A stretch of 64,000 nucleotides of DNA from Escherichia phage W115, in sequence record ON286974. One strand, given 5' to 3'. The notes below the pieces were generated by a model that did not search any database, was not told the origin of the DNA, and saw nothing but the letters and a program-made list of their open reading frames with translations. Below, piece after piece: positions 43,356 through 51,500 of the stretch. The translations under genes were made by a program, and so were the position numbers. The number at the start of each line of letters is the position of its first letter. The stretch's first letter is position 1.

Positions 43356-44357
43356 TTTTTCAAAAGTTTTTACGATATACATGATAGTGCTCAATTCAGA
43401 CGGCGCGACTGTTTCTGTGTAGCCATCCGGCATATCTTCTTTTGAGATATAGGAAGTTTTACCTTTCATCGCTTCCTTGATCTTGTTCTCTAATTCTAAG
43501 ATCTTTTGACCGTCTTGTAAAGTCAATTCATAAAAGATCTCGTGGTCGAATTTAGATTTCGCTGATTGGTTTCTCATTCGTTCTTGTGTTGTTAAATTGG
43601 TTATTCCAAATTTGATTCCATAAAAACATGATTTTTTAATTAGTTTTTGAATGTATAGTGTTCCGTGTTTTAAAGTGTTGTATCCAAATCTAGCACAACT
43701 TGAACATCTATTTCCTGATAGAAACCCGTTAATTGTTGGTGTAAATGTATGACCATTACAACATTGCAATTTTAATTTTGTTGTATTTCCTTTCCATTCA
43801 CCTATAAATCCATTGAATAGTATGTTTTCTTTATCAAAGATTGGTTTAATTCTAATAATATAGTCATCTTTGGGTATTGATTTTAATTCTTTCAGTTTTA
43901 ACCGGTAGCATTCTTGGCAGCGTCTTCCATTTTTGAAATTGTTAATTGTTGGTGTAAATGTATGTCCATTACAACATTGTAGATTTAATTTTGTCGATGA
44001 CCTTTTCCATTCACCTATAAATCCATTGAATAGTATGTTTTCTTTATCAAAGATTGGAGTTAACTTATGTAGATGTTCATCTTCCGAAAAAGATTTCATC
44101 CTTCCATTCTTTATGTCTGCACATTTATGACAGCGATTTCCAGCGTTGAAATTGTTAATTGTTATTGTAAATGTATGACCATTACAACATTGCAATTTTA
44201 ATTTTGTTGTATTTCCTTTCCATTCACCTATAAATCCAATAAACTTTATATTTTCTTTAAAGAATGTTGGTTTTAATTCTTCGTAGTAATTCACTGGAGA
44301 TTTTGAATTGTGAGCTTTTCTAACCCATTCAATCTCATGTGCTTGACGTACTAACAT
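43341..44357 (-). CDS. protein with three tandem Cys/His zinc-ribbon repeats and a C-terminal T5orf172/GIY-YIG-like region
   Basis: Trimmed to ATG with GGAGGA RBS; three roughly 70-aa repeats (GFIGEWKGNTTKLKLQCCNGHTFT.TINNF..GNRC..C); C-terminus GTLYIQKL...FYGIKFGITNL...R resembles T5orf172. Confidence 0.5.
   Translation of the reverse strand: MLVRQAHEIEWVRKAHNSKSPVNYYEELKPTFFKENIKFIGFIGEWKGNTTKLKLQCCNGHTFTITINNFNAGNRCHKCADIKNGRMKSFSEDEHLHKLTPIFDKENILFNGFIGEWKRSSTKLNLQCCNGHTFTPTINNFKNGRRCQECYRLKLKELKSIPKDDYIIRIKPIFDKENILFNGFIGEWKGNTTKLKLQCCNGHTFTPTINGFLSGNRCSSCARFGYNTLKHGTLYIQKLIKKSCFYGIKFGITNLTTQERMRNQSAKSKFDHEIFYELTLQDGQKILELENKIKEAMKGKTSYISKEDMPDGYTETVAPSELSTIMYIVKTFEKELTA
43730..44275. 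repeat. three tandem copies of a roughly 210-bp coding repeat (high nucleotide identity)
   Basis: Near-identical blocks starting near 43730, 43937 and 44150 (aattgttggtgtaaatgtatgaccattacaacattgcaattttaattttgttg...), by eye. Confidence 0.7.
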
Positions 44358-44384
44358 AATTTTATCCTCCGTTGTTTCTATGGG

Positions 44385-44418
44385 TGCATTATACATTACC
44401 ACATCAGCATGTCAATAC
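44385..44418 (-). promoter_or_regulatory. sigma70-like early promoter 19 (TTGACA-16-TATAAT)
   Basis: Read on the minus strand upstream of the zinc-ribbon repeat gene. Confidence 0.5.
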
Positions 44419-44436
44419 ATTTTCATAAAATTTTAG

Positions 44437-44477
44437 GCAATAAAAAAAGCCTCCCCGAAGGAAGGCTTTAAAATTCA
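44437..44477 (-). terminator. intrinsic terminator downstream of gene 32
   Basis: aagcctcc-ccgaa-ggaaggctt hairpin plus T-run on the minus strand. Confidence 0.5.
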
Positions 44478-45446
44478 TTACATCCCTAACAGAGCGTCAA
44501 GATCATCCAGATCAGAAGCGGAGGAAGTACCGCCACCCAGATCCAGCGATGCCATCAGGTCATCAGCGGAAGAATCTAACGCCGTGCTAGCTGCGTTAAT
44601 ACCAACTACAGTGCTAGCTGCGTTAATACCAGAATCGAATGCATTCATCTGTGCGTCAAAATCGTCAAGCTGGCTGTTAATCGCTGCCGCAGCACTGGAA
44701 GCCGCAGCACCAGCTACCATAGAAACGCCCATAGTTTTCTTAAATTTGGTTTCCAGTTCATCGAACGGTTTAAACTGGCTAGGCGCTACAATCTCACTCA
44801 GGTCAACCATGTTTTCCATCAGATATTTCTGATATGCTTCGTCTTCAATTTTCGGAAGCTGTGATTGCTGCATGAAACGAGAATCATCATAGTTCTGGTG
44901 TTTATCAACCTTCTTAGCTTTCAGGAGGAAGTTAGCACCGGAGAACACACAAGTTACATCTACCGGAACTTCGCCCATGTCGGTATTCACGTTCACCATT
45001 GCAACGATCTTATCATAAATTTTCTGACCGAAGCGGAATTTGAATACCTTACCTTCATTTTCTGGTGCTTGAGGATCTTTCAGTACCAGAATGTTTGCGT
45101 AGTAAGACGCTTTACGCTTAATCAGTTGCCATTCGGTTTTATCGGTATTGTACAGGTCTTTTTCGTTAATATATTTGCACACAGGGCAAGAATCAAAATC
45201 ACCGTGGGTGCTGGAGCAGTTTTCCCAATACCATTTGCCATTAACTTTGAAGGAATGGTTTACCAGTTTCACAATCGGCAGACCGTCTTCTGTCTTCGAC
45301 GGCAGGAAGCGAATCAGGGCTTCACCGTTACCTGCTGCATCAGTCTTAATCTTCCACTCTTTCGGATCTTCTTTGGAGAAACCGTTGCCACCTTTCAGTG
45401 CGGCCAGTTGAGCTTGCAGTTTGGAAGAATCTTGGCGTTTAAACAT
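44478..45446 (-). CDS. 32: single-stranded DNA-binding protein gp32
   Basis: Start at ATG (MFKRQ...) with AAGGAA RBS; LIRFLPSK...[22 protein letters not shown]...[18 protein letters not shown]... nearly co-linear with T4 gp32; acidic C-terminus. Confidence 0.9.
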
Positions 45447-45506
45447 ATTCACTATTCCTTCTTTTGATTGATTTACTAGACTATTATACAGATTTAAATT
45501 TACTTG

Positions 45507-46187
45507 TCAACTATTTGTTTCGGCTTTTAATTGAGATATTTCTTTACACTCTTTAACTACTTTAACAAATAATGCTCTTGCTTTTGCGGCGTCAATAACA
45601 AGTAGTTTCTTGTACGCCTTCATTTTAACACTATAAGTTTGCCAAATCAAGTCTTTGGCTACCTTGTCGTGTTCGTCGATTATATTTAGAAAGCTATCTA
45701 ACAACATAAACGACTCAAACGATATAATCCGATTTTGCAGTAGTTTAAAGATACCGCTAGTTTCGGTTGCGGGATTATATGTAATTAGCTCTTTAAGAGT
45801 AACCCCGCGTTTCTCTGAGAAGTATACAAGACTTTTAATGTCATCGTCAAATCTTGTTGCTGCATCGGTTATCTTTCCTATGTATTCCATATAAAAGCCG
45901 TATGCGTCAACATCAGTGATTTCACCTACCCATGCATCGGTATTAGCTACCAGATTGCTTAGGAATAGGAAGTATAATTCTCTTAGATTGTACTTTTCCG
46001 CTAATTTTGCGAAATAATACTTATCTCTGCGTTTATTGAATGCGGCATCAGACAACCGCATCCTCCAATTGTATTTTACGCAATCATAACGCCCGTTCAT
46101 GTGAGCTTTCATCATGCAATATAACATATACACAGATTTAGCATTAATTCGCATATCTGGATCTGGAGGAAGACGGTTTCTGATCAT
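45507..46187 (-). CDS. 59: helicase loader gp59
   Basis: 226 aa; AKSVYMLYCMMKAHMNGRYDCVKYNWRMRLSDAAFNKRRDKYYF... co-linear with T4 gp59. Confidence 0.9.
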   Translation of the reverse strand: MIRNRLPPDPDMRINAKSVYMLYCMMKAHMNGRYDCVKYNWRMRLSDAAFNKRRDKYYFAKLAEKYNLRELYFLFLSNLVANTDAWVGEITDVDAYGFYMEYIGKITDAATRFDDDIKSLVYFSEKRGVTLKELITYNPATETSGIFKLLQNRIISFESFMLLDSFLNIIDEHDKVAKDLIWQTYSVKMKAYKKLLVIDAAKARALFVKVVKECKEISQLKAETNS

Positions 46188-46196
46188 ACATACCCC

Positions 46197-46466
46197 TTAA
46201 ATATCGAGAGTGTTGGTCGGTTCGTCGATCACTCCCTTCCTGAGCGTTCTATTTACTATACATTCTTGTGTGATCTTGTCAATAATGGACACCGGAATAT
46301 ACTTCTGATAGTGACCATATTCGATAGAGTTTTCCTCTACAAACTGCGTTGTCGCTTCAAGATAAGTCAATCCCTCTTCAACAACCAGTTTTTCGATTGC
46401 AAGACCGTTTGCTGTTTTATTCGCGGCTTTTACCGCATGTTCATTAAGCATTGAACACCCGATCAT
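46197..46466 (-). CDS. 33: late transcription accessory protein gp33
   Basis: 89 aa; ...IEKLVVEEGLTYLEATTQFVEENSI... matches the T4 gp33 core; exact start uncertain. Confidence 0.7.
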   Translation of the reverse strand: MIGCSMLNEHAVKAANKTANGLAIEKLVVEEGLTYLEATTQFVEENSIEYGHYQKYIPVSIIDKITQECIVNRTLRKGVIDEPTNTLDI

Positions 46467-46719
46467 AGAGTTCTACCGCTTCGTCGCGTTCTGCTTCGAA
46501 GGTTTCGCGCTGTTGCTGGTGATACAGTTTAAACAGAATGCCCCACATTTTACCATCTACGCCTAATTCTTCTTTAGCACGCTGTTTGATCTCTTTGATC
46601 TTATCGCCATATGCTTCTTGAATGGTTTTCTGATCGCTGGCTTCTTTAATCAGTTGTGCCAGGGTATTTCCGTGTACATTTTCGTCAAATACTACTTTTT
46701 CTTTTTTCTGTTCAGTCAT
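46444..46719 (-). CDS. dsbA: DsbA-like double-stranded DNA-binding protein
   Basis: 91 aa; assigned by size and synteny between gene 33 and rnh. Confidence 0.55.
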   Translation of the reverse strand: MTEQKKEKVVFDENVHGNTLAQLIKEASDQKTIQEAYGDKIKEIKQRAKEELGVDGKMWGILFKLYHQQQRETFEAERDEAVELYDRVFNA

Positions 46720-46723
46720 AATA

Positions 46724-47323
46724 TTAACCCTCTTTAGTAATTAATTGAAAACCACGTTCAGCTTTTGATATTTCGCTAGGACTTAAATCGTCACCAACAT
46801 ATTCTAGCATCATTTCTCGGATAATGTCAAGTGCTTTTTCATCACCTGATTTTAACTCGAACTCAAGTTCATAATGAGCAGTGTCGCCCAATCCTTCGCC
46901 TACTTTGCCATAATAGAAAGTGTCTTTGCACATTTCCACTATACCACAACCCATATCTAGAGTCAATGACTTGCGATATGTCATTACTTGCATTATTGTA
47001 GTGATATAGTCGGAGTTTACCCCTAGACTATCAATAAAATGGACGAACTCATCCCAATTTGAAAATGTCATTTCCTCGCGGTTGAATAGTCCAGATTCAT
47101 TATCACCCATTTTGACCATGATCTCTGATTTTCTACAGTCAAGTCGTGCATAAATTCCTTTTTGACGTAGCGCATGATCTTCGGTATCATAATAAAATTC
47201 GTGTTTTAATATGTTATCTCGGTCTAAGAGATTGTACCCGTCATACATTACCACCCACAAATCACAGATGGTTTCGACGCCAATTTGTGAGTGTGCATAG
47301 TATTTTAATTCAAGTTCTTTCAT
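46724..47323 (-). CDS. CYTH-domain protein (triphosphate tunnel metalloenzyme; adenylate cyclase class IV / triphosphatase-like)
   Basis: 199 aa; N-terminal ExExK (KELELKYY), HEFYYDTEDHALRQKGIYARLD, and HYELEFELK acidic strand pattern typical of CYTH; no counterpart at this position in T4. Confidence 0.6.
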   Translation of the reverse strand: MKELELKYYAHSQIGVETICDLWVVMYDGYNLLDRDNILKHEFYYDTEDHALRQKGIYARLDCRKSEIMVKMGDNESGLFNREEMTFSNWDEFVHFIDSLGVNSDYITTIMQVMTYRKSLTLDMGCGIVEMCKDTFYYGKVGEGLGDTAHYELEFELKSGDEKALDIIREMMLEYVGDDLSPSEISKAERGFQLITKEG

Positions 47324-47333
47324 GTGTCAACCC

Positions 47334-48281
47334 TTAGAACTCACCAATTTTCTGTAACATTTTAACTAACGCATTTGTTACAAAATAGTTATAAATTTTA
47401 CCGCGTGGTGCTGGTTTAGATTTCTCCCATGCTAACAAAATTTCATATTCGATGTTATCAGGAATAAATTCAAAATCAATAAGTTCGCGGTTTTCGTCAA
47501 AGCGTCGTGCTTCTTCCTCTGTCATCAAAGACTTTGGATCTTCGGCATCGAAAATTTGCTCTAACCATTTGGTTGCAATTGGTTTAGCTCGTTCTCCTTC
47601 CAGTCGTGAGATAATGAAATCACTACGGCACTTGATCGAAGCTACACCGTCTTTTGCGTCACCCTTAACACATTTTACCATAAGGTCTTTGTAAGGGCTA
47701 CCATATTTGCATTTCTTCCATGCTTTCTGTACTGGTGCCCACTGTTTCACATTTTTGTATTTGTGCAACTGTGTGTAGTCACCATCGCCGGAGTTGATTA
47801 GCACCTGGCGACCTTCTACAGAAAACTTTTTAGTTAATACAGCGATTATATCATCCGCTTCAACTTTGTCAACCTTAATAACGTGATAAGGCATGTTCTC
47901 TTTAAACTCTTCGGTGATCTTATTGATCGCAGCAAAGATCATCTCCCAATCACGCGGATCTGCGTCTCGTTTTTCCTTACGGTTGCGTTTATAGTAAGGT
48001 GCGATATCACGTCGCCAGTAACCTTTGCTTGAATCAAAGGCAAGTACCGTAATTGGGTATTGCTCTTTGAATTTTGTCATATTATAACGCATGGTGTCAA
48101 GAATAAGATGACGAATCATGCCTTCATTAATAGGATCTTCCGGTTTAAAGGTATGCGAGATAGTAGCAATCATAAGCTGCGACATATCAATCAAATGCAC
48201 ACCTTCCGGCAGTTTATCTTCTGGATCATCGAAGAAATCATTAAGTGTAGCGGTAGTTTTTGTAAATGGGTTATACGTCAT
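47334..48281 (-). CDS. rnh: RNase H (FEN-family 5'-3' exonuclease)
   Basis: 315 aa; acidic-cluster pattern (FDSSKGYWRR, DDIIAV, SGDGDY) of T4 RNase H; synteny. Confidence 0.85.
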   Translation of the reverse strand: MTYNPFTKTTATLNDFFDDPEDKLPEGVHLIDMSQLMIATISHTFKPEDPINEGMIRHLILDTMRYNMTKFKEQYPITVLAFDSSKGYWRRDIAPYYKRNRKEKRDADPRDWEMIFAAINKITEEFKENMPYHVIKVDKVEADDIIAVLTKKFSVEGRQVLINSGDGDYTQLHKYKNVKQWAPVQKAWKKCKYGSPYKDLMVKCVKGDAKDGVASIKCRSDFIISRLEGERAKPIATKWLEQIFDAEDPKSLMTEEEARRFDENRELIDFEFIPDNIEYEILLAWEKSKPAPRGKIYNYFVTNALVKMLQKIGEF

Positions 48282-48283
48282 AA

Positions 48284-48469
48284 TTAAGTTCTCTCCACTC
48301 TCACAACAACATATTCGCCAAACGAGTTAGATACTTCACGATCATACCCGTATTTCTCCATAACTCGCAGAATTGCATTGTTTAATTCGGCACGGAAATA
48401 ATTGTAATCCTTATCAGGGATTCTGTCAACTACCCATTTTGCACCTTCTGACAAATCAACTTTAACCAT
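48284..48469 (-). CDS. hypothetical protein (61 aa)
   Basis: Track ORF between rnh and gene 34. Confidence 0.45.
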   Translation of the reverse strand: MVKVDLSEGAKWVVDRIPDKDYNYFRAELNNAILRVMEKYGYDREVSNSFGEYVVVRVERT

Positions 48470-48507
48470 AATATATCATCCTCTTTTGTTTCTATCAAGC
48501 CTTATTT

Positions 48508-48515
48508 TATAAATA
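48508..48515 (+). promoter_or_regulatory. T4-type late promoter (TATAAATA) upstream of gene 34
   Basis: Exact TATAAATA about 28 nt upstream of the gene 34 ATG; AAAGGAGA RBS. Confidence 0.65.
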
Positions 48516-48543
48516 TGAACATACTATAAAAGGAGACCCAATA

Positions 48544-51500
48544 ATGGCAGATTTTTCTCAACATTTCAAGGCCACATTTGGCTTTGACGCTGGTAATGAA
48601 AAGGTCGTCAATGTAGCATTGGCTGATAAGAATGTCAACACCGATGCGGTCAACGTTGAATTTTTCAATTACCATAATGGTATTACTCAGTATGACACAA
48701 CTCGCGGTTATGATCAATACGGAACTACAATCTATCAAAACCGTCCGTATTATGCAAAAGAAGATATCACAAAGCCAGCAGGTGATTTTGACCCGACTAA
48801 ATGGCAAGCACTGCGCACGGACCCACGTTGGGATTATATTGCAGCAACTTCCGGTGATACTCCTTTAAAGTCTGGTGATTATATCGCAGCAGATGGTCAA
48901 TTTGCAAACTTGACTTTCTCTATGCCAACTAAACCAGCAGAGGGAGACACTATAACAGTAAAAGATATCGGTGGCAAGTGTGGTGTTAACGAATTATCGT
49001 TCTTGAGTACAGGACATGAGTTTTACCATAATGGTAATGTATATAACAGAAAATGGTATTGCACTACCCCGTATGCAATGAACTATTTCATCTTTGTTCG
49101 GAATCGTTGGCATGTTTATCAGACAGGAACAGAGCCACGCGGTGTGTACGCACAGCCAGCGATTGATGCTATTCAAATGCAGAATGGTGATCAGGTATTT
49201 CGTCGTAGTTCGTTGGGTAATATTACCTTAGTGCTTCCTAAGTTTGCCAACAATGGCGACATGATCCAGACTACAGACCTTGACGGATTAACCGCAACCA
49301 ACCACGTTACGGTTAAAGTTCATGAGCACGCAGAAGAACAATCAATTGGCACGTCCGGTCTAAAAGAGATTATCGGTAAGCGTAGCGGTCATGGTGTATT
49401 CATCTTTGACAAGACGGAAAACTTATGGCGTTTGTGGGATGGTGATCAGTCTGTTCGTCTTAAACCGATCATCAATGACACTCGCTTGCAACCTAATAGC
49501 TATGTTGCTGTATTTGGTGGTCGTGATGTTACTCTGACGCTGCCGACCAATGTCGAGCCGGGTGATCGTATTCAAGTTTCTATGCAGTATATGCACGGAA
49601 ACCAGACTTGCCGAATCATTACCTCAGAAGAGGATACAAAAATCCTTATGCAGAAAAACATGGTTCAGTTTCCTAAGCGTAGCGAGTACCCATTCAATGG
49701 GACCGATACATGGACTGGAGTGTCTGAATTGTCTTTCAACGCTGCAAATGATTATGTACCTTATCTGGAGTTCTCTTATTCAGAAGGTGATGATGGTAAG
49801 AAATACTGGTTGGTGGCACATGCTCACCCGATTGTAGAACGAGTAGATCCGACTCGTAAAGATCGTGTTGGTGTAATTGCACTGGCTACCCAGACTGAAA
49901 CGAATAAAAACCATGAAGAGAATCCTAGCGACGAAGTTGCTGTAACACCAAAAATGCTGGCTAATAAAACAGCCAACGAAACTCGACGCGGTATTGCTCG
50001 CATTGCGACTCAAGCGGAAACGCATCAAGATACTGGTTCCAACTTCCTGGATGATGTTATCGTTACACCCAAAAAGTTAAATGACTGTGTTGCTACCGAA
50101 GCCCGTCGTGGTGTGATGGAAATTGCAACCCAGCACGAAACCAATGAAGGTTTAGACGATACCCGCGCTATTACTCCTAAGAAATTAGAAGAACGTCGCG
50201 CTTCCGAAGATCTAGCTGGTATTGCTGAAATTGTTCAGGCTGGCGGTAGTGCTGCCGCTCGACGTGGCGAAGCTGGTACAGGGATCTATAACATCAACGA
50301 CCATGCTAAAATTGTTACGCCACAAAACATCAACGAAGTCAAGGCGACCGAAACTTCCCGTGGTGTTGGCTATCTGGCAACTGACGCGGAAGTGCAAGGG
50401 GCTACAGAATCAACCCCGCAAGATGCTTTACTAATCACGACTCGCACGCTAACGAAACGTACTGCTACCGAATCGCGCACTGGTATCGCTGAAATTGCAA
50501 CTCAGGAAGAAACAAACTTAGGTCAAAGTGATAACCATATCATCACGCCTAAAAAGCTGCATACTCGCCGCGCAACTGAAACTTTACATGGTTTAGCAGA
50601 AATTGCAACTCAACCGGAGTTTGACGCAGGTCGTGACGATTCTCGCATTTCTACCCCATTGAAGATTAAAACCTTCTTTGAGAATGCACAGCGTTTGAAA
50701 GTAGATCCGACTCAGGGGCTTAACCTTACTGGTGATTTGTGGCAAGGTATCATGATCAGCGGTCTGGATGCAACCGAAGACACAAAAGGTGTCGCTAAAG
50801 TTGCTACTACTCAGCTTACTGACGCTGGTCAAGATGATACTACAATCATCACGCCTAAAAAGCTGCAAGGCAAAAAGGCCACCGAAGGTAAAGAAGGCAT
50901 TATCCGAGTTGGTACTCAAGCCGAAACCGTGGCTGGTATTATGGACAATGTAGCAATTTCTCCGAAGAACTTCAAATATGTTGTTCAGACAGAGGATACA
51001 TGGAAAGCAACCGAAGCGCGTCGTGGATTCTTGAAAGTTGCTACTCAGGAAAACTGTTTTGTTGGTGATAATCTGCAAGGTTCTACTCAAGAACTAGGAA
51101 ACTACCAGCATGACGGAATTGCTGTTACCCCTAAAGGATTAAACTACGCACTTGCTAATTTCTTACCTAAGATGGCAACCGCTCAGAATAGTTTGAAATT
51201 GGGTAACGTAGAGGCCTCTAAATGGGCGCGTAGAGACATTGACCAGACCATTGAGAGCAATTACACGTTTAATAAAAACGTTAACGTGAAGGGCGATTTA
51301 GAGTGCTTAAAATCTGGTTCCTTTGAAACTCTGTCTGTGACTAAGAACTCGACCGATGTTCCGAGTAATGGTCATCTGGTGTTGGGTGAGCGTGGAGTTG
51401 ACGGTCACACCGGAATTACTCTGCATGGCACAACCGCATCGGAAGGCATGAAAAACTCTTGGTCTATTATCGTTGGTGGTACTGGAACAGCGCAAGTTGT

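Follow-up and report, generated by a model that had tools for sequence, protein, structure and literature searches.

Between its dsbA and rnh genes, Escherichia phage W115 (sequence record ON286974) carries a gene for a 199-aa CYTH protein that is probably an active two-metal tunnel phosphohydrolase of the YgiF type, lacking the CHAD domain and serving as an accessory enzyme, with inorganic tripolyphosphate (PPPi) or short polyphosphate as its leading candidate substrate. The analysis covers a 64,000-nucleotide stretch of this phage, called the window below. The parts of this explanation differ in strength: the residues of the tunnel make it almost certain that the protein cleaves phosphate by hydrolysis and is not a cyclase, and they make active two-metal triphosphate chemistry very likely; PPPi or short polyphosphate is favored as the substrate only tentatively, because the tunnel is remodelled relative to that of bacterial relatives resembling inorganic triphosphatase (PPPase). 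The gene and the segments of it on which the argument turns are as follows.

46724..47323, minus strand: CYTH/triphosphate tunnel metalloenzyme (TTM) gene, ATG start, 199 aa; YgiF-type tunnel domain without CHAD
47303..47317, minus strand: ExExK (E3, E5, K7) on strand β1, read from the translation; invariant in 63 sequences
47138..47152, minus strand: strand Y58-A-R60-L-D62; R60 is the predicted catalytic Arg (YgiF R56) and D62 replaces the second Arg
46850..46876, minus strand: strand β8, HYELEFELK, aa 150–158; E154 is the predicted metal-1 ligand and E156 the predicted metal-2 ligand (YgiF E160 and E162)
46751..46768, minus strand: SKAERG, aa 186–191, start of the plug helix; K187 and G191 invariant, R190 nearly so

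A sequence-only reading of this DNA had placed a 199-aa CYTH gene between dsbA and rnh, and profile searches bear that out: the open reading frame (ORF) matches Pfam PF01928 (CYTH) over aa 27–191 with 29.2 bits (E=1e-6; gathering cut-off 23.2). The AlphaFold2 (AF2) model of the protein (pLDDT 95.1, pTM 0.89) has eight long strands and a C-terminal helix, forms the expected eight-stranded antiparallel beta-barrel tunnel with a C-terminal plug helix, and superposes on solved tunnel enzymes. When a profile built from phage sequences only was compared with solved structures, the sole match was E. coli YgiF (PDB 5A60; E=8e-13, residues 2–196), and hhalign aligns the protein to YgiF with 98.7% probability over residues 2–195. 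PF05235 (CHAD) gave no match, the protein ending at aa 199, directly past the plug helix. There were zero matches in NCBIfam at E≤1, and none of the defence-protein families modelled in PADLOC-DB was matched at E≤1. A phmmer match in the PDB to the TriTu immunity protein (E=0.23) was dismissed as spurious.

Most of the motifs proposed from the sequence are also present. ExExK is found as ELELK at aa 3–7, the E.E.E strand as HYELEFELK at aa 150–158, and YYDTxD as YYDTED at aa 44–49; the RxR that was expected to follow is incomplete, its second Arg being D62. Across the 63 aligned sequences E3, E5, K7, R60, R82, E84, R117, D134, E152, E154, E156 and K187 are invariant, and the tunnel is lined by acidic (E3, E5, E84, E130, D134, E152, E154, E156) and basic residues (K7, R60, K71, R82, R117, K158, K187, R190), nearly all of which are conserved. 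In YgiF, where metal-binding and catalytic residues have been established by crystallography and mutagenesis, PPPi is bound with two metals: metal 1 is bound by E160 and metal 2, which activates the water for its attack, by E4, E6 and E162, and R56 is catalytic (Martinez et al. 2015, PMC4641920). YgiF residues E4, E6, E160, E162 and R56 align with E3, E5, E154, E156 and R60 of the phage protein: the full set is present. Catalysis does not require the second Arg of the RxR strand, since AtTTM3 carrying R54A, a substitution of the equivalent residue, is still active (PMC4641920).

By analogy with YgiF, the phage enzyme would work with two metals (Mg2+ or Mn2+). Metal 1, held by the substrate and E154, would seat the triphosphate in the tunnel; metal 2, held by E3, E5 and E156, would activate the water that attacks the terminal phosphate; and R60 would stabilize the leaving group. 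Most likely made early or midway through infection together with the replication genes, such an enzyme could finish the breakdown of polyphosphate or clear PPPi.

A different product would be expected if the protein were a class-IV adenylate cyclase, or another nucleotidyl cyclase, making a cyclic nucleotide signal. Its homolog is labelled "adenylate cyclase" in the AV108, KMB43 and PHB13 records, and the class-IV cyclases (CyaB, YpAC-IV; PDB 2FJT, 3N10) belong to the same superfamily, have two metal sites and are a remote fold match to the phage protein. These cyclases are distinguished by the motif HFxxxxExExK, whose HF extension stacks adenine, by a small residue in place of the first Arg, and by ExA on β8 (Vogt et al. 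2021, PMC8233210). All three discriminators fail: the phage protein starts MKELELK, with only M1-K2 before E3; R60 is invariant; and β8 reads E154-F-E156. An ExE combined with a retained Arg is the signature of a hydrolase (PMC8233210), and YgiF, the closest characterized enzyme, has no detectable cyclase activity (PMC3440374). The absence of HF, the retention of R60 and the ExE on β8 lead us to reject a class-IV cyclase, which is extremely improbable. Several Krischvirus records thus carry the label "adenylate cyclase" without support, and the name that can be defended is "inorganic triphosphatase-like TTM hydrolase". The interpretation offered by the sequence-only reading thus survives in part: a triphosphate-tunnel enzyme is upheld, whereas the making of a nucleotide signal is unlikely.

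The family to which the protein belongs is small and phage-specific. A word-seeded search of 5.8 billion proteins returned 44 matches, nearly all Krischvirus-like, and an exhaustive hidden Markov model (HMM) search of 1.84 billion cluster representatives returned 3,402 at E≤1e-3. Only three in the HMM search reach E≤1e-30: the phage family itself and two proteins, P0043 (47% identity) and P0121 (38–39%), both from T4-like contigs on which the gene lies directly upstream of dsbA and gp33 and, for P0043, also directly downstream of rnh. In at least three T4-like lineages, therefore, the phage-type clade is found at this same locus. Next in order are stand-alone proteobacterial CYTH proteins of ~200 aa, many of them labelled "inorganic triphosphatase / YgiF", and then CYTH-CHAD proteins.

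These stand-alone proteins, P0044, P0045 and P0057 among them, are the nearest cellular relatives (24–31% identity); they equal the phage protein in length and lack CHAD, as do many bacterial relatives. Their RxR strand, however, is the canonical A-x-R-x-R, small residues take the place of the aromatics of the phage clade, and their genes lie in chromosomal phosphate-transport neighborhoods. In two gammaproteobacteria unrelated to each other, the genes of the closest of these relatives adjoin, divergently, a PhoU_div+PHO4 pair for phosphate transport; in Sansalvadorimonas the short CYTH gene is also beside an alkaline phosphatase gene. These neighbors tie the sister clade to inorganic phosphate metabolism. 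Among the bacterial loci L008, L009, L013, L014 and L015, a gene for an RsmD-like methyltransferase lies downstream of the short CYTH gene in L008 and L013.

YgiF itself (PDB 5A60/5A61, residues 1–200) shares with the phage protein the four Glu metal ligands, the catalytic Arg, ExExK and the SKAxRG plug helix, although sequence identity is only ~23–25%. Missing from the phage protein are YgiF's linker and its CHAD domain, which binds polyphosphate; YgiF R58 corresponds to Asp62 and G54 to Tyr58, and ~11 tunnel-facing positions are fixed differently. A recent capture of the host ygiF is rejected on this low identity and because the nearest cellular relatives are from non-enteric gammaproteobacteria. 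The mammalian 25-kDa thiamine triphosphatase (ThTPase; PDB 3BHD, 5A64) is far less similar to the phage protein than is YgiF. Other viral CYTH proteins (BFVD hits, Aeh1ORF004c, jumbo-phage CYTH) are likewise virus-encoded TTM folds, but they are remote matches only (TM-score TMq ≤0.51, identity ≤16%), occupy different loci and are not of the same family; the PHROGs entry phrog_14893, annotated "unknown function", is specific to the Krischvirus family and separate from them.

The tunnel of the phage clade was compared with that of its bacterial relatives using 11 phage-clade and 52 bacterial YgiF-like sequences. A clade switch was defined as a position conserved in at least 80% of the phage clade and at least 50% of the bacterial set and differing between the two, and tunnel-facing positions were assigned by strand register anchored on known catalytic residues, rather than by measured burial. 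The switches, from bacterial to phage residue, are L8Y, L40K, N42E, A58Y, R62D, H80F, T113V, F115T, A132C, G136F, V138Y, I150H and L155F. The known order of TTM strands (PMC8233210) was the basis for placing residues along the tunnel. On this basis Y9, Y44, Y58, F80, V113, F136, Y138 and H150 would sit at the plug-helix end, the end at which the organic moiety of the substrate is bound in ThTPase and SaTTM (PMC8233210). Y58 aligns with the position of ThTPase W53, and the phage protein has Asp for the second Arg of the ThTPase motif W/YxRxR; Y58 itself varies occasionally, being Ser in P0007 and Val in P0121. D62 would be at the γ-phosphate/metal-2 end, and L40K and R62D, on adjacent strands, look like the relocation of one positive charge. 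This clade-fixed remodelling is new in this analysis.

Several points tell against a YgiF-type enzyme acting on PPPi. Eleven of the switches are tunnel-facing by strand register, and position 62 is Asp in 11 of 11 phage-clade sequences and Arg in 52 of 52 bacterial relatives. The tunnel has gained aromatics at Y58, F80, F136 and Y138, together with His150, and at what appears to be the organic-moiety end these residues would suit an organic triphosphate at least as well as they would bare PPPi. The likeness to YgiF is weak at the level of single sequences: phmmer against the PDB finds nothing significant (YgiF at E=1.1), and YgiF is recovered by profiles only. The timing supposed for expression derives from consensus promoter matches. 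E. coli pyrophosphatase already provides ample PPPase activity, and the benefit of a phage-encoded PPPase is unclear. Finally, YgiF is in vitro a specific PPPase, inactive on ATP, GTP, ITP, pyrophosphate (PPi) and polyP65 and slow on thiamine triphosphate (ThTP), yet those who characterized it doubt that PPPi hydrolysis is its physiological role (PMC3440374).

Variation among Krischvirus genomes shows which parts of the protein are under constraint. The gene falls into two segments:

46877..47323, minus strand: variable allele cassette, codons 1–149, delimited by nucleotide identity and sliding-window comparison
46724..46876, minus strand: conserved 3' block, codons 150–199, 96–100% nucleotide identity across Krischvirus alleles

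In sliding windows, identity drops at the start codon (~47320) and returns to 98–100% at ~46876 (codon 150), with sharp edges at both. Over codons 1–149 nucleotide identity is 85% to RB49 and 55.9% to Skers and L005, with synonymous divergence (dS) to the latter two saturated (2–3), while codons 150–199 are 96–97% identical to Skers and L005. GC content at third codon positions (GC3) of the 153-nt 3' block is 0.196, compared with 0.34–0.46 in neighboring genes. The contrast with the surrounding genes is evident when the window is compared with related phages or lineages:

Window vs. Skers: rnh 96.8% aa, dsbA 100%, gp59 98.2%, CYTH 56.8% aa / 70.3% nt
Window vs. RB49: rnh 96.8% aa, dsbA 98.9%, gp59 94.7%, CYTH 83.4% aa / 88.0% nt
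Window vs. Phi1: rnh 95.2% aa, dsbA 98.9%, gp59 100%, CYTH 97.0% aa / 97.3% nt
Lineage L004: CYTH 51% aa identity, neighboring genes ~80%
Lineage L016: CYTH 38% aa identity, neighboring genes ~74%

The CYTH gene evolves ~2.5–3 times faster than its neighbors. At least five allele types are distinguished (window/Phi1, RB49, Skers, L005/L007 and the more distant L004), and P0034 (67% identity) probably represents a sixth. The ratio of nonsynonymous to synonymous divergence (dN/dS, ω) of the CYTH gene is 0.16–0.34, indicating purifying selection; that of neighboring genes is mostly 0–0.15, with dsbA at 0.24–0.41 from very few substitutions.

Invariant positions were counted over aa 1–149 in seven very divergent allele representatives:

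Tunnel-facing strand positions: 25 of 39 invariant
Outward-facing strand positions: 2 of 41 invariant
Helix positions: 2 of 34 invariant
Loop positions: 5 of 35 invariant

The difference between tunnel- and outward-facing strand positions is highly significant (Fisher P~1e-8; ~1e-8 to 1e-11 across the class tests): the interior is therefore strictly constrained, and the exterior is drifting or diversifying. This pattern is strong evidence for a maintained catalytic function. Recombination swaps the exteriors of the alleles among phages whose backbones are nearly identical. The data are compatible with a host factor exerting pressure on the exterior, but do not prove it, and homing-endonuclease genes nearby could drive local gene-conversion tracts. 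We reject rapid positive selection within lineages as the only explanation for the hot-spot, since dS is saturated and ω is below 0.35. Both the allele cassette and the contrast in invariance between tunnel and exterior are new in this analysis. A second, small mosaic tract is seen inside rnh at ~47449–47489, where identity to RB49, Skers and Phi1 falls to 52–75% while L005, L007 and G2494 remain 95–100% identical.

How these data bear on the substrate depends on what the aromatic residues do: they may line a pocket that accepts an organic triphosphate, or make a plug that restricts the enzyme to PPPi. If they line a pocket, the same chemistry would act on an organic triphosphate whose base or ring is held by the aromatic end of the tunnel, and the enzyme might serve the phage against its host. 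The substrate could then be thiamine triphosphate, an NTP or dNTP, a nucleotide that is modified or terminates chains, or an immune or alarmone nucleotide bearing a 5'-triphosphate. The tunnel switches are clade-fixed, Y58 is found where the Trp of ThTPase stacks the thiazole ring, and Y58, F80, F136, Y138 and His150 lie together at the end where an organic moiety would be held. The gene is also a hot-spot of divergence (57% aa identity as against 97–100% for rnh and dsbA) with at least five alleles swapped as a cassette, a pattern common for host-interaction genes, and it is confined to one phage lineage (58 of 1,403 dsbA-bearing records). For CYTH enzymes of phages, Iyer et al. 2021 suggested roles in breaking down NTPs, and triphosphate-bearing immune nucleotides are known, such as p3diT of the Clover system. 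Bulkier residues could, however, equally shut the end of the tunnel and so narrow specificity to PPPi; with dS saturated and mean ω below 0.35, the diversity can be old divergence shuffled by recombination; and neither the PADLOC models, with their zero matches, nor the literature search linked CYTH to counter-defence. An organic substrate is accordingly a serious but less likely alternative to PPPi. In the boldest reading, a re-specialized TTM with an aromatic tunnel would hydrolyse a conflict-relevant triphosphate, for example an NTP that is modified or terminates chains, an immune signal or alarmone with a 5'-triphosphate, or PPPi set free by defensive dNTP triphosphohydrolases; recognition or inhibition by host factors would be the reason that its exterior is diversified and exchanged as a 149-codon cassette. 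This would constitute a new enzymatic class of counter-defence in T4-like phages, and we think it rather improbable.

The position of the gene raises a further possibility: an RNA 5'-triphosphatase converting ppp-RNA to pp-RNA could aid primer removal by RNase H, or mRNA decay. The superfamily includes Cet1-type enzymes, to which there are detectable fold matches, and the gene begins 10 nt from the rnh stop within the replication cluster. T4 and ~1,350 other dsbA-carrying phages, however, do without it, the invariant plug helix closes one end of the tunnel and so suits small molecules better than the end of a polymer, and the closest similarity is not to enzymes of the mRNA_triPase family; action on RNA 5' ends is thus decidedly improbable. 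Nor is it at all likely that the gene is a dispensable or decaying passenger, or encodes a non-catalytic binding protein. Such a view would account for its absence from most T4-like phages, for an evolutionary rate ~2.5–3 times that of its neighbors and for phage G2494 (L011 1501–2096), in which a frameshift after ~codon 58 splits the gene into ORFs of 66 and 130 aa (either a sequencing error, or a pseudogene and sign of dispensability). Against it, only one of the 58 records, and none of the metagenomic homologs, has a broken ORF, ω is well below 1, and tunnel and metal ligands are strictly kept while the rest diverges, which is the signature of a maintained active site. The tunnel hydrolase of YgiF type, with PPPi or short polyphosphate foremost among its candidate substrates, is therefore the explanation we prefer.

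The gene is specific to one group of phages. The window region is 96–99% identical to Krischvirus genomes such as RB49, Phi1 and JSE, the closest being Delraymugoa, Aragogtheria and GoldenSnicker (99.1% identity). By tblastn the CYTH protein is encoded in 58 of 50,697 phage records, all Krischvirus, whereas a dsbA homolog is found in 1,403, among them those 58. In T4, dsbA (149509–149778) and rnh (149787–150704) are separated by 8 bp with zero genes in the gap, just as the sequence-only reading had it. The distribution and the empty gap in T4 together mark the CYTH gene as a lineage-specific insertion. A Skers-type allele, P0035, is filed under "hypothetical protein [Escherichia coli]"; its contig of 163,765 bp is most likely an entire Krischvirus genome within a bacterial assembly.

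The domain identity is not new, similarity to ygiF/CYTH being already public: the RefSeq record of RB49 annotates RB49p245 as "similar to P45267, P30871, HI1598, ygiF", and Nolan et al. 2006 listed RB49ORF244c as "CYTH domain" with E=0.0026 (PMC1524935). Later records call the gene hypothetical protein, adenylate cyclase or inorganic triphosphatase. A literature search found no functional study of the Krischvirus/RB49 CYTH protein, and the accessory-gene screen of Silas et al. makes no mention of it.

The neighbors of the CYTH gene, all on the same strand and closely packed, are:

47334..48281, minus strand: rnh (T4-type RNase H / 5'-3' exonuclease), upstream neighbor
46444..46719, minus strand: dsbA (PF11126), downstream neighbor

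Ten nucleotides separate the rnh stop from the CYTH ATG, and four the CYTH stop from the dsbA ATG. Genes 33, 59 and 32 follow downstream, and gene 34, which is divergent, lies upstream of rnh. A 61-aa ORF between rnh and gene 34 (48284–48469, minus strand; phrog_3594, unknown function) is 92–100% identical in aa sequence across Krischvirus; the corresponding gap in T4 (~105 bp) has no annotated gene. In the window and in Phi1, gp59 (45507–46187, minus strand) is 226 aa long, as against 215 aa in the RB49 annotation (L001 5167–5814), probably a difference in the start codon annotated. Homing-endonuclease genes near the cluster vary by genome (L012 2778–3341; L002 7802–8398; L011 3298–3593; T4, L010 1910–2542): in PTE-Eco09 one lies between the 61-aa ORF and gene 34, and Skers and G2494 have an HNH gene between genes 59 and 32, where T4 has SegG.

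Expression signals were called as consensus matches only. The late-promoter motif TATAAATA occurs just once nearby, on the plus strand at 48508–48515, ahead of gene 34; none was found on the minus strand from gene 32 to gene 34. Within 44300–48700 there are 26 σ70-like matches, mostly on the minus strand, compared with 13.1±3.9 expected from shuffled sequence, an excess that fits the many early promoters of T4-like phages. Three matches lie close to or within the CYTH gene:

47845..47872, minus strand: σ70-like promoter match inside rnh, 12/12 with an extended -10 TG; nearest strong candidate upstream of CYTH
47302..47330, minus strand: TTGACA-17-TAAAAT, 11/12 σ70-like, spanning the rnh/CYTH junction and codons 6–8; candidate by consensus match
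46801..46830, minus strand: σ70-like site, 11/12 with TG, in the conserved 3' block, ~80 nt upstream of dsbA

The tight packing with rnh and dsbA and the lack of a late motif on the minus strand suggest that CYTH is co-transcribed with these two genes, in early or middle infection. At the junction, the sequence TAAGGGTTGACA(C/T)ATG is kept in all lineages (L001, L002, L005, the distant L004, as TGAGGTGTTGACAAATG, and L016), with TTGACA retained even in L004 and L016. Transcription from the junction site would begin within the CYTH gene, and the site might serve for read-through into dsbA/33/59; or its conservation may merely reflect the Shine-Dalgarno sequence and coding constraint. The site at 46801..46830 is kept within Krischvirus but not in L004 or L016, and it is no more than a candidate reason for the conservation of the 3' block. 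Further downstream, a perfect σ70-like site (45510–45483) coincides with an early promoter annotated upstream of gene 32 in RB49, and a strong terminator hairpin follows gene 32 (44469–44446).

For the TTM family, these data define a phage-specific clade in which a strictly conserved catalytic tunnel is unlike that of all bacterial relatives, making substrate specificity concretely testable in a group where even the cellular YgiF has no clear physiological role. For Krischvirus, the sharply bounded cassette within an otherwise near-identical replication cluster makes this gene a candidate for interaction with the host. Should it encode a plain PPPase, then it is a modest auxiliary metabolic gene; if the target of the enzyme proves to be a triphosphate or nucleotide of immunity or of the phosphate economy, it would represent a new phage strategy.

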